A stretch of DNA of 11,141 nucleotides from positions 1 through 11,141 of IMG/VR virus record IMGVR_UViG_2778261591_000002, one strand, 5' to 3'. Under the pieces are notes generated by a model. The model was given only the letters and a program-made list of their open reading frames with translations, did not search any database and was not told where the DNA came from. Made by a program: the position numbers and the translations under genes. Below are positions 5,803-6,321 of the stretch, piece by piece. Source of the stretch: a virus. Its lineage: Duplodnaviria > Heunggongvirae > Uroviricota > Caudoviricetes. How positions within the stretch are numbered: position 1 is the first letter of the stretch; the number at the start of each line of letters is the position of its first letter.

Positions 5803-6321
5803 ATGAATCATCAATTGGCTAATCTCGATTTCCGGGACATGGTGGTTGTTTCTGGTGATCGCGTGATCACAACCTCCCGCAAGGTAGCAGCTTACTTCGA
5901 CAAGCAGCATCACCACATCATTCAGAAAATCGAAAAGCTAGACTGTTCGGATGAATTTCTAACCAGCAACTTTTCGCGGGTTACCTATGAACACAAGGGT
6001 AATCAGTATGTTGAATATGAAATTTCCAAAGACGGCGCGATGTACATCATCATGTCGTTTACCGGCAAAAAAGCTGCCGCCATCAAAGAGGCGTTTATCA
6101 AAGCATTTAATTGGATGCGTGACAGGCTGATGGAGATGGCTCACTCATACCAAAGAGAGCACAACGAGTTAATGCTGGAGTTCATGAAGGAAAAGGATGT
6201 TGCCAGTATGTCAGGACGCTTGCTGAACCGCTGGGGCAGGATCAAAAAACCGCAACTCATAGCAAGAATCGAAAGGCTTGAGCAGCAGGCACAAATATCG
6301 ATCCCCGGACTGCCAAAGTGA
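5803..6321 (+). CDS. rha: Rha-family phage regulatory protein
   Basis: The track ORF 5560..6321 has an implausible N-terminal extension across a terminator hairpin. ATG 5803 (AAGG 10 nt upstream) gives a 172-aa protein with the Rha signature near the N-terminus (VVVSGDRVITTSRKVAAYFDKQHHHIIQKIEKL) and a coiled-coil-like C-terminus. Location between lysis and terminase matches the P22 rha position as I recall it. Confidence 0.7.
   Translation: MNHQLANLDFRDMVVVSGDRVITTSRKVAAYFDKQHHHIIQKIEKLDCSDEFLTSNFSRVTYEHKGNQYVEYEISKDGAMYIIMSFTGKKAAAIKEAFIKAFNWMRDRLMEMAHSYQREHNELMLEFMKEKDVASMSGRLLNRWGRIKKPQLIARIERLEQQAQISIPGLPK

Follow-up and report, generated by a model that had tools for sequence, protein, structure and literature searches.

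The rha genes of phages P22 and phi80 are among the closest described relatives of the gene analyzed here. Genetic work summarized in PMC4936722 (Mozola & Friedman 1985, Henthorn & Friedman 1995) showed for phi80 and for P22 hybrids that the rha product prevents lytic growth when the host is deficient in IHF, which normally keeps rha in check. The phi80 record annotates rha with the note "DNA synthesis inhibition in IHF- hosts". For Roi of phage HK022, Clerget & Boccard (1996, cited in PMC3430580) reportedly described inhibition of lytic growth in IHF mutants, which is also the phenotype that defined rha (PMC4936722). The Rha, KilA-N, and ORF11CD3 domains are part of the Bro network, whose members swap domains and which is abundant in PICI satellites as well (PMC10111431). 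As the first-pass annotation of this locus remarked, Rha function is still poorly understood, and our literature searches found no recent mechanistic work on Rha. Structured phage mRNA leaders are known to control translation or processing, as in the RNase III-processed leader of lambda N.

The window, meaning the whole 11.1 kb stretch of DNA (11,141 nucleotides) that was analyzed, covers the genome of a P22-like (Lederbergvirus) temperate E. coli phage from the nin region to the portal gene. Its best whole-DNA matches were CUS-3, vB_EcoP-720R6, Kapi1, HK620, and Gally, with patchy identity of 96–97%. The gene order is a P63C-domain gene, a Roi-like gene, YbcO, RusA, NinH, and Q, then tRNA-Asn, tRNA-Thr, holin, endolysin, Rz/Rz1, and rha. 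After rha come DUF2560 (P22 orf80 / HK620 hkbM), the small terminase, the large terminase, and the portal. The coding features are as follows:

1704–2432, plus strand: Roi-like protein with a marginal pRha match and ANT/KilAC, in the nin region
5023–5460: Rz/Rz1
5803–6321, plus strand: rha coding sequence, ATG start, 172 aa, stop codon at 6319–6321
5869–6120, plus strand: Phage_pRha domain, residues 23–106 (Pfam)
6145–6306, plus strand: ORF11CD3 helical hairpin, residues 115–168 (Pfam)
6675–6917: DUF2560 gene
6920–7360: small terminase gene terS, with terL next

The tRNA pair (Asn-GTT and Thr-TGT, 3845–4000) lies between Q and the holin gene, and vB_EcoP-720R6 has both tRNAs annotated as well. 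The nin-region gene at 491–1558, upstream of Roi, encodes 355 aa with P63C as the C-terminal domain (PHROG 2384), and the PADLOC models gave no match to its product. A 50-aa small ORF with a hydrophobic N-terminus (5448–5600) overlaps the end of Rz and is annotated as hypothetical in Gally, 720R6, epsilon34 (gp67), and Sf6 (gene 65). This ORF had no match in a Pfam search; its product may sit in the membrane and be connected with lysis.

The product of 5803–6321 passed the curated thresholds of both Pfam and NCBIfam for the Rha family. Phage_pRha (PF09669) matched at E 1e-23 with 84.1 bits vs a cut-off of 29.9, TIGR02681 phage_pRha at 76 bits (cut-off 45.95), and PHROG 518, "Rha-like transcriptional regulator", at E 5.5e-80. 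These matches, together with the position between Rz and DUF2560/terminase, confirmed the earlier proposal of a Rha-family gene in the slot between lysis and packaging. The C-terminus had been described as coiled-coil-like and different from the KilAC region of the upstream protein. It is a helical hairpin in the AlphaFold model and corresponds to a named domain, ORF11CD3 (PF10549, E 8.8e-24, full profile 1–54 covered), vs ANT/KilAC at E 6.9e-33 in the upstream protein. The product carries ORF11CD3 together with a swappable, putatively DNA-binding N-terminal domain.

Comparison with annotated phages identified 5803–6321 as the canonical phage gene rha: it is allelic to P22 rha (orf201) and related to phi80 rha. 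P22 Rha (NP_059624; NC_002371 39575–40180) is 45% identical over its full length (E 1e-53) and has the same Phage_pRha plus ORF11CD3 architecture. Its ORF11CD3 half is nearly identical, whereas its N-terminal Rha domain has strongly diverged, and the DNA is about 73% identical only over the 3' 156 nt. The P22 gene shares the slot (gene 15/Rz1, rha, orf80/DUF2560, gene 3) but has another, longer spacer before orf80. Rha of phi80, the founding member (NC_021190 43739–44293), is 38% identical (E 6e-35), and its gene follows Rz/Rz1 immediately, preceded by the same terminator and by a leader of 93% identity. However, its C-terminus is not ORF11CD3, and phi80 is a siphovirus with cos ends, unlike the P22-like phage of the window. 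In the window, rha (from 5803) follows Rz (to 5460), and this order downstream of the lysis genes is alike in P22 and phi80.

Phage Gally carries a 100% identical protein annotated "Rha transcriptional regulator, similar to P22 Rha". Of 5426 complete E. coli genomes, 210 contain the rha DNA at ≥99% identity, with the gene annotated as a Rha family transcriptional regulator, and the 90%-identity clusters of the protein hold hundreds of member sequences. The locus is therefore already known and the gene itself ordinary, being a long-known rha at its customary site behind the lysis genes. Outside these phages, Gilliamella prophages have a pRha+ORF11CD3 gene that comes after the lysis cassette and directly precedes the terminase genes. 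A Shewanella prophage has one in a tail-region accessory cluster with arc, a second pRha gene, and higBA. These contexts indicate that the position before the packaging genes is frequent but not obligatory.

That the ORF is a decaying remnant or a chance reading frame without function is very improbable. PHROG 518 is 268 positions long and Rha matches only 2–173 of it, and the annotated P22 and phi80 proteins are longer (201 and 184 aa, vs 172 aa in the window). This extra length, however, is an upstream extension into the conserved leader. All Rha alleles align from a shared downstream ATG, from which P22 Rha measures 178 aa and phi80 Rha 172 aa, so both database starts probably lie too far upstream. 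The stretches that the annotations add, 39575–39643 in P22 and 2624–2659 of locus L013 in phi80, reach up into the conserved leader hairpin. A full-length alignment with 56 homologues has 22 invariant residues, and both domains scored far above their cut-offs. The possibility of a truncated pseudogene, raised in the first-pass annotation, was checked: the gene is intact and aligns over its full length with >300 homologues. We rejected truncation on the basis of the shared ATG, the full-length homologues, and the 210 near-identical genome copies.

An AlphaFold2 model of Rha, built from 56 homologues, reached a mean pLDDT of 85.6 and a pTM of 0.70. It has a compact alpha/beta domain at residues 10–83 and a C-terminus in which a very long helix (89–134) folds back on a second helix (138–162). 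The Rha domain has an alpha/beta fold with a helix-turn-helix core. Conservation is lopsided: the N-domain has a mean identity of 38% to homologues and the ORF11CD3 region, which contains the almost invariant stretch EKDVASMSGRLLNRWG, has 70%. From this we infer a variable DNA-recognition head and a constant tail for oligomerization or partner binding. A PDB sequence search with the Rha family profile returned nothing significant (best E 0.06). The top weak Foldseek matches were winged-helix DNA binders with helical dimerization regions (PadR, RTP, TcpK), at E ≥ 0.12 and thus useful as a lead only. Across both searches, no solved DNA-binding protein matched the Rha structure significantly.

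The same protein could instead act mainly through protein–protein contacts, as an antirepressor or de-repressor directed at the repressors of other resident prophages or satellites. The RefSeq label of P22 rha is "anti-repressor", PHROG relatives are annotated in the same way, and the strong conservation of the ORF11CD3 half could mark a surface for partner binding. The abundance of the Bro network in PICI satellites (PMC10111431) and the Rha-domain gene beside arc in the Shewanella prophage also fit this role. However, the ANT/KilAC, AntA, and P22_AR domains of characterized antirepressors were absent from Rha in Pfam searches at E up to 0.01, and the "anti-repressor" label is an annotation by similarity. 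Expression from the late operon would also come too late to help induction of the own prophage. We therefore regard an antirepressor role as unlikely.

Rha would be more readily placed as a regulator or interference factor that acts on DNA replication or transcription and harms phage DNA synthesis when overproduced. This role is drawn from the IHF-host phenotype and the DNA-synthesis note in the phi80 record. The phenotype was reported for phi80 and P22 hybrids, whose alleles differ from that of the window, and because phi80 Rha lacks the ORF11CD3 C-terminus, the phi80 phenotype may not transfer fully.

The first-pass annotation had counted 5803–6321 as the second Rha-domain protein of the window and had read the two as divergent paralogs. 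The Pfam part of this claim held, with the product of 1704–2432 matching pRha at 30.8 bits. This match is marginal against the cut-off of 29.9, compared with 84.1 bits for 5803–6321, and NCBIfam Rha (TIGR02681) did not match the upstream protein. The upstream protein matches the product of CUS-3 roi at 90% identity, and its HK620 counterpart is roi. The "first Rha" is thus Roi, a separately named gene of HK022, HK620, and CUS-3.

When the two proteins were compared directly, BLASTP found no significant similarity. With hhalign, the Rha family profile aligned only to the helix-turn-helix core of Roi (TSxxIxxxxGKxHxxVxRxI), at a probability of 48% and E 2e-4. Roi and Rha share this core, but Roi lies in the nin region (delayed-early) and ends in ANT/KilAC. 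On this sequence comparison, the two share an ancient domain and are separately known genes, and the reading as paralogs diverged within this phage was dropped. CUS-3 carries roi together with a late pRha+ORF11CD3 gene, and Gally has an annotated "Phage antirepressor protein" in the region matching Roi alongside its Rha. As published phages already combine roi and rha, the pairing says nothing special about this genome. Distinct timing of the two genes, as the earlier reading had it, is plausible from their positions in the nin region and the late operon.

Between the Rz side and rha, the window contains a conserved and structured leader of about 150 nt behind a terminator. The elements are as follows:

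5635–5660, plus strand: intrinsic-terminator-like hairpin AGCCTCGCATTCGCGGGGCT with a T run after it, downstream of Rz, found by scan at 5635–5654 (helix 1)
5675–5689, plus strand: small GCGC...GCGC hairpin, 98% of cells paired, little variation (helix 2)
5703–5792, plus strand: long irregular leader hairpin of about 90 nt with its core at 5715–5780, from covariation and RNAalifold
Stems of this hairpin: P1, GAGCCUG/CAGGCUC; P2, AGAAAUGCCG/CGGCUUUUCU; apical P3, AGGU-GGCG-ACCU

A terminator is annotated at the homologous place in phi80, HK106, and epsilon34, and its stem showed compensatory changes at 4 of 7 pairs. RNAalifold on 16 diverse leaders gave P1, P2, and P3 at 5715–5780. In the predicted structure, 97.6% of cells were standard pairs, compared with 38–45% when the partners were slid by 1–3 columns. 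Compensatory double changes occurred at 15 of 32 leader pairs, with the P1 covariation coming largely from P22 alone, and at no more than 5 pairs in the slid controls. None of 500 shuffles reached the observed pairing and covariation values. The minimum-free-energy folds of 11 diverged leaders contained the same hairpin. In most of these folds, a basal extension paired CCUUU (5703–5707) with the Shine–Dalgarno AAAGG (5788–5792), 10 nt before the ATG; the folded stretches of CUS-3 and epsilon34 stop short of the 5' partner and are uninformative on this pairing. The P22 leader is homologous but more diverged. It is visible only in the multiple alignment, and compensatory changes keep the same hairpin. 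Unlike that of the window, the predicted P22 hairpin leaves its own Shine–Dalgarno uncovered, so occlusion of the ribosome-binding site is not universal.

The leader was found at 68–100% identity in 172 phage records, from phages of Escherichia, Salmonella, Klebsiella, Enterobacter, Hafnia, Citrobacter, Pantoea, and Providencia. Phi80, HK620, HK106, CUS-3, and P22 all have it, as do at least 120 IMG/VR contigs. When IMG/VR was scanned with a pattern that leaves the variable positions free, at least 120 leader loci came up, closely related in sequence, with 12 distinct cores among the 120 matches listed. Among these matches, the first free pair was A-U in 108, G-C in 11, and G.U in 1, and the second was U.U in 82, A-U in 15, U-A in 12, C-G in 10, and C.U in 1. 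The start codon stood at a fixed 19–23 nt after P1 in the matches listed. An Rz homologue lay just upstream of the leader in 85 of the 108 listed IMG/VR loci with enough flank. The gene following the leader in the 120 matches listed was:

Phi80-type Rha: 51
Rha+ORF11CD3: 39
Other, incomplete, or truncated Rha: about 7 (Rha in all, about 95)
KilA-N types: 7
T5orf172: 2
HNH_3: 1
Family without a Pfam match: 10
No ORF of at least 60 aa: 3

Members of the family without a Pfam match (10 of the 120 matches listed; e.g., loci L080, L044, L056, and L118) are 151–243 aa long and begin MK(V/I/L)IKYWKVQLL; in loci such as these four, the gene begins 19 nt past the leader. In Klebsiella phage ST15-VIM1phi2.1 (locus L018, 677–1417), the leader and a Rha gene lie outside the lysis–terminase slot, after a DUF3383-type gene. 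The occurrence of both in this non-lysis context indicates that the leader moves together with its gene. Phi80 (locus L013, 4191–4230) has a partial copy of the leader 3' half, 88% identical to window 5755–5795, upstream of ORF x171.28. This copy suggests that the part of the leader near the Shine–Dalgarno may be reused as a junction sequence.

These comparisons make 5635–5802 a candidate for a previously undescribed, portable cis-regulatory RNA module of enterobacterial temperate phages, which would bury the ribosome-binding site and be swapped between unrelated accessory genes. We advance this reading tentatively. Rfam gave chance-level matches to the leader (best mir-627, 19 bits vs a gathering score of 86), and a prophage sRNA preprint that we examined does not mention the rha leader locus. 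The rha leader resembles leaders of the lambda N type in that a long irregular hairpin, with the Shine–Dalgarno predicted in its basal helix, stands just ahead of the start codon on a polycistronic phage mRNA. It differs in having no sequence or Rfam relationship to them and in its portability between unrelated downstream genes. On the folding models, the hairpin probably limits rha translation. It could gate translation of the slot gene late in infection through RNase III cleavage, a trans-acting factor, or temperature, and it might be the point where IHF or host physiology limits Rha. A consensus scan found no IHF site (WATCAANNNNTTR) in the leader at 0 or 1 mismatch, and the 13 matches in the whole window were at chance level (11.4 expected), a negative that does not speak against IHF control.

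The exchange boundaries at this locus are sharp. Homology with CUS-3, 720R6, HK620, and HK106 extends to window 5807–5810, next to the rha start codon at 5803, and homology with HK620 and HK106 resumes at 6316–6323, around the stop codon at 6319–6321. CUS-3 and 720R6, whose slot ORFs are other Rha alleles, showed 77% similarity over 6170–6311 and high identity again from 6438. In HK620, the slot holds a KilA-N+ORF11CD3 gene (HkbK) plus hkbL, and in HK106 and epsilon34 it holds a T5orf172/MUG113 (GIY-YIG-like) gene. HkbK occupies the identical slot behind a 100%-identical leader and ends in ORF11CD3 like the window Rha. It differs in its N-terminal KilA-N domain in place of Rha and in the small gene hkbL that follows. 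By these alignments, cassettes are exchanged precisely at the post-lysis slot, the joints falling at the start and stop codons. Rha would be one of the interchangeable "Bro-N network" DNA-binding genes that occupy it; the Bro-N/KilA-N network itself was reportedly laid out by Iyer et al. in 2002. The idea that ORF11CD3 is common to every slot gene was rejected, as phi80 Rha and the T5orf172 proteins do not have it.

Phage Sf6 does not have window 5624–6322. Homology with Sf6 breaks off at 5623 and is picked up again at 6323, at a 9-bp near-repeat whose two copies flank the terminator–leader–rha module:

5615–5623: near-repeat copy, CATTACAAA
6323–6331: near-repeat copy, CATTCCAAA

A hairpin comes next after each copy. 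The Sf6 break at the near-repeats indicates that the exchanged module consists of the terminator, the leader, and the gene, and its absence from Sf6 shows that the module is dispensable. The term "moron", applied to this gene in the first-pass annotation, fits in part. The gene is inserted between genes that are adjacent in Sf6, but its own promoter and a downstream terminator were not found. A sigma-70-like promoter scan of 5300–6800 gave 0 sites vs 2.2 expected in shuffles, the scan being a crude one that can miss weak or activator-dependent promoters. Downstream of rha, the hairpin at 6330–6351 has no T run, and the terminator sits upstream of the gene. The GC content is modestly lower in rha (46.1%) than in the lysis (50.2%) and packaging (49.9%) genes.

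The variety of genes in the slot also raises the question of whether they serve conflict between elements, such as exclusion, anti-defense, or homing, with Rha as a weapon or shield that, for example, blocks the replication of competitors. T5orf172/GIY-YIG-like, HNH, KilA-N, and unknown-family genes share the leader and the slot, and the corresponding interval of phage Huey carries annotated anti-CRISPR genes. The absence of the module from Sf6 and the phi80 phenotype of DNA synthesis inhibition agree with such a function. Against it, no PADLOC defense model matched Rha, and the known phenotype is self-inhibition in IHF-deficient hosts. On balance, a role of this kind appears doubtful.

The spacer between rha and the DUF2560 gene (6322–6674) is structured as well. 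It contains the following hairpin:

6330–6351, plus strand: hairpin AAGCCCATCTACGGGTGGGCTT, directly after the rha stop, without a T run

In Sf6, the equivalent hairpin follows Rz directly. As a whole, the spacer is predicted to form a series of hairpins and to fold much more stably than shuffled sequences (z = -5.84); the hairpins include the perfect palindrome ACAGATTTAACTAAATCTGT at 6414–6433. The spacer is 92–98% conserved in P22, HK620, CUS-3, Sf6, HK106, HK97, and HK022, whatever the slot gene, and this leaves too little sequence variation for covariation.

Taken together, we consider it fairly probable that the rha product of this P22-like phage is a late, leader-damped, and dose-sensitive DNA-binding regulator or interference factor. 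The gene would be transcribed only late, from Q-antiterminated PR' transcripts, and Q-modified late transcripts would read through the terminator at 5635–5660 into rha. Pairing of the leader hairpin with the ribosome-binding site would then hold Rha translation low. Damped translation of this kind fits a gene whose overexpression is harmful. The protein would bind DNA via its Rha domain, and ORF11CD3 would provide oligomerization or contact with a conserved partner.

Herein, the gene itself is nothing new: rha has been named since the 1980s–90s, and annotations of this allele already exist for phages and for hundreds of E. coli genomes. The reading of two paralogs is corrected to Roi plus Rha, both linked to poor growth on IHF-deficient hosts. 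The fresh point is the conserved structured leader common to the cassette genes, and this leader and the exact cassette joints are the parts that merit more study. If the leader is a real control element, it would offer a handle on how the dose-sensitive genes in this slot stay quiet.
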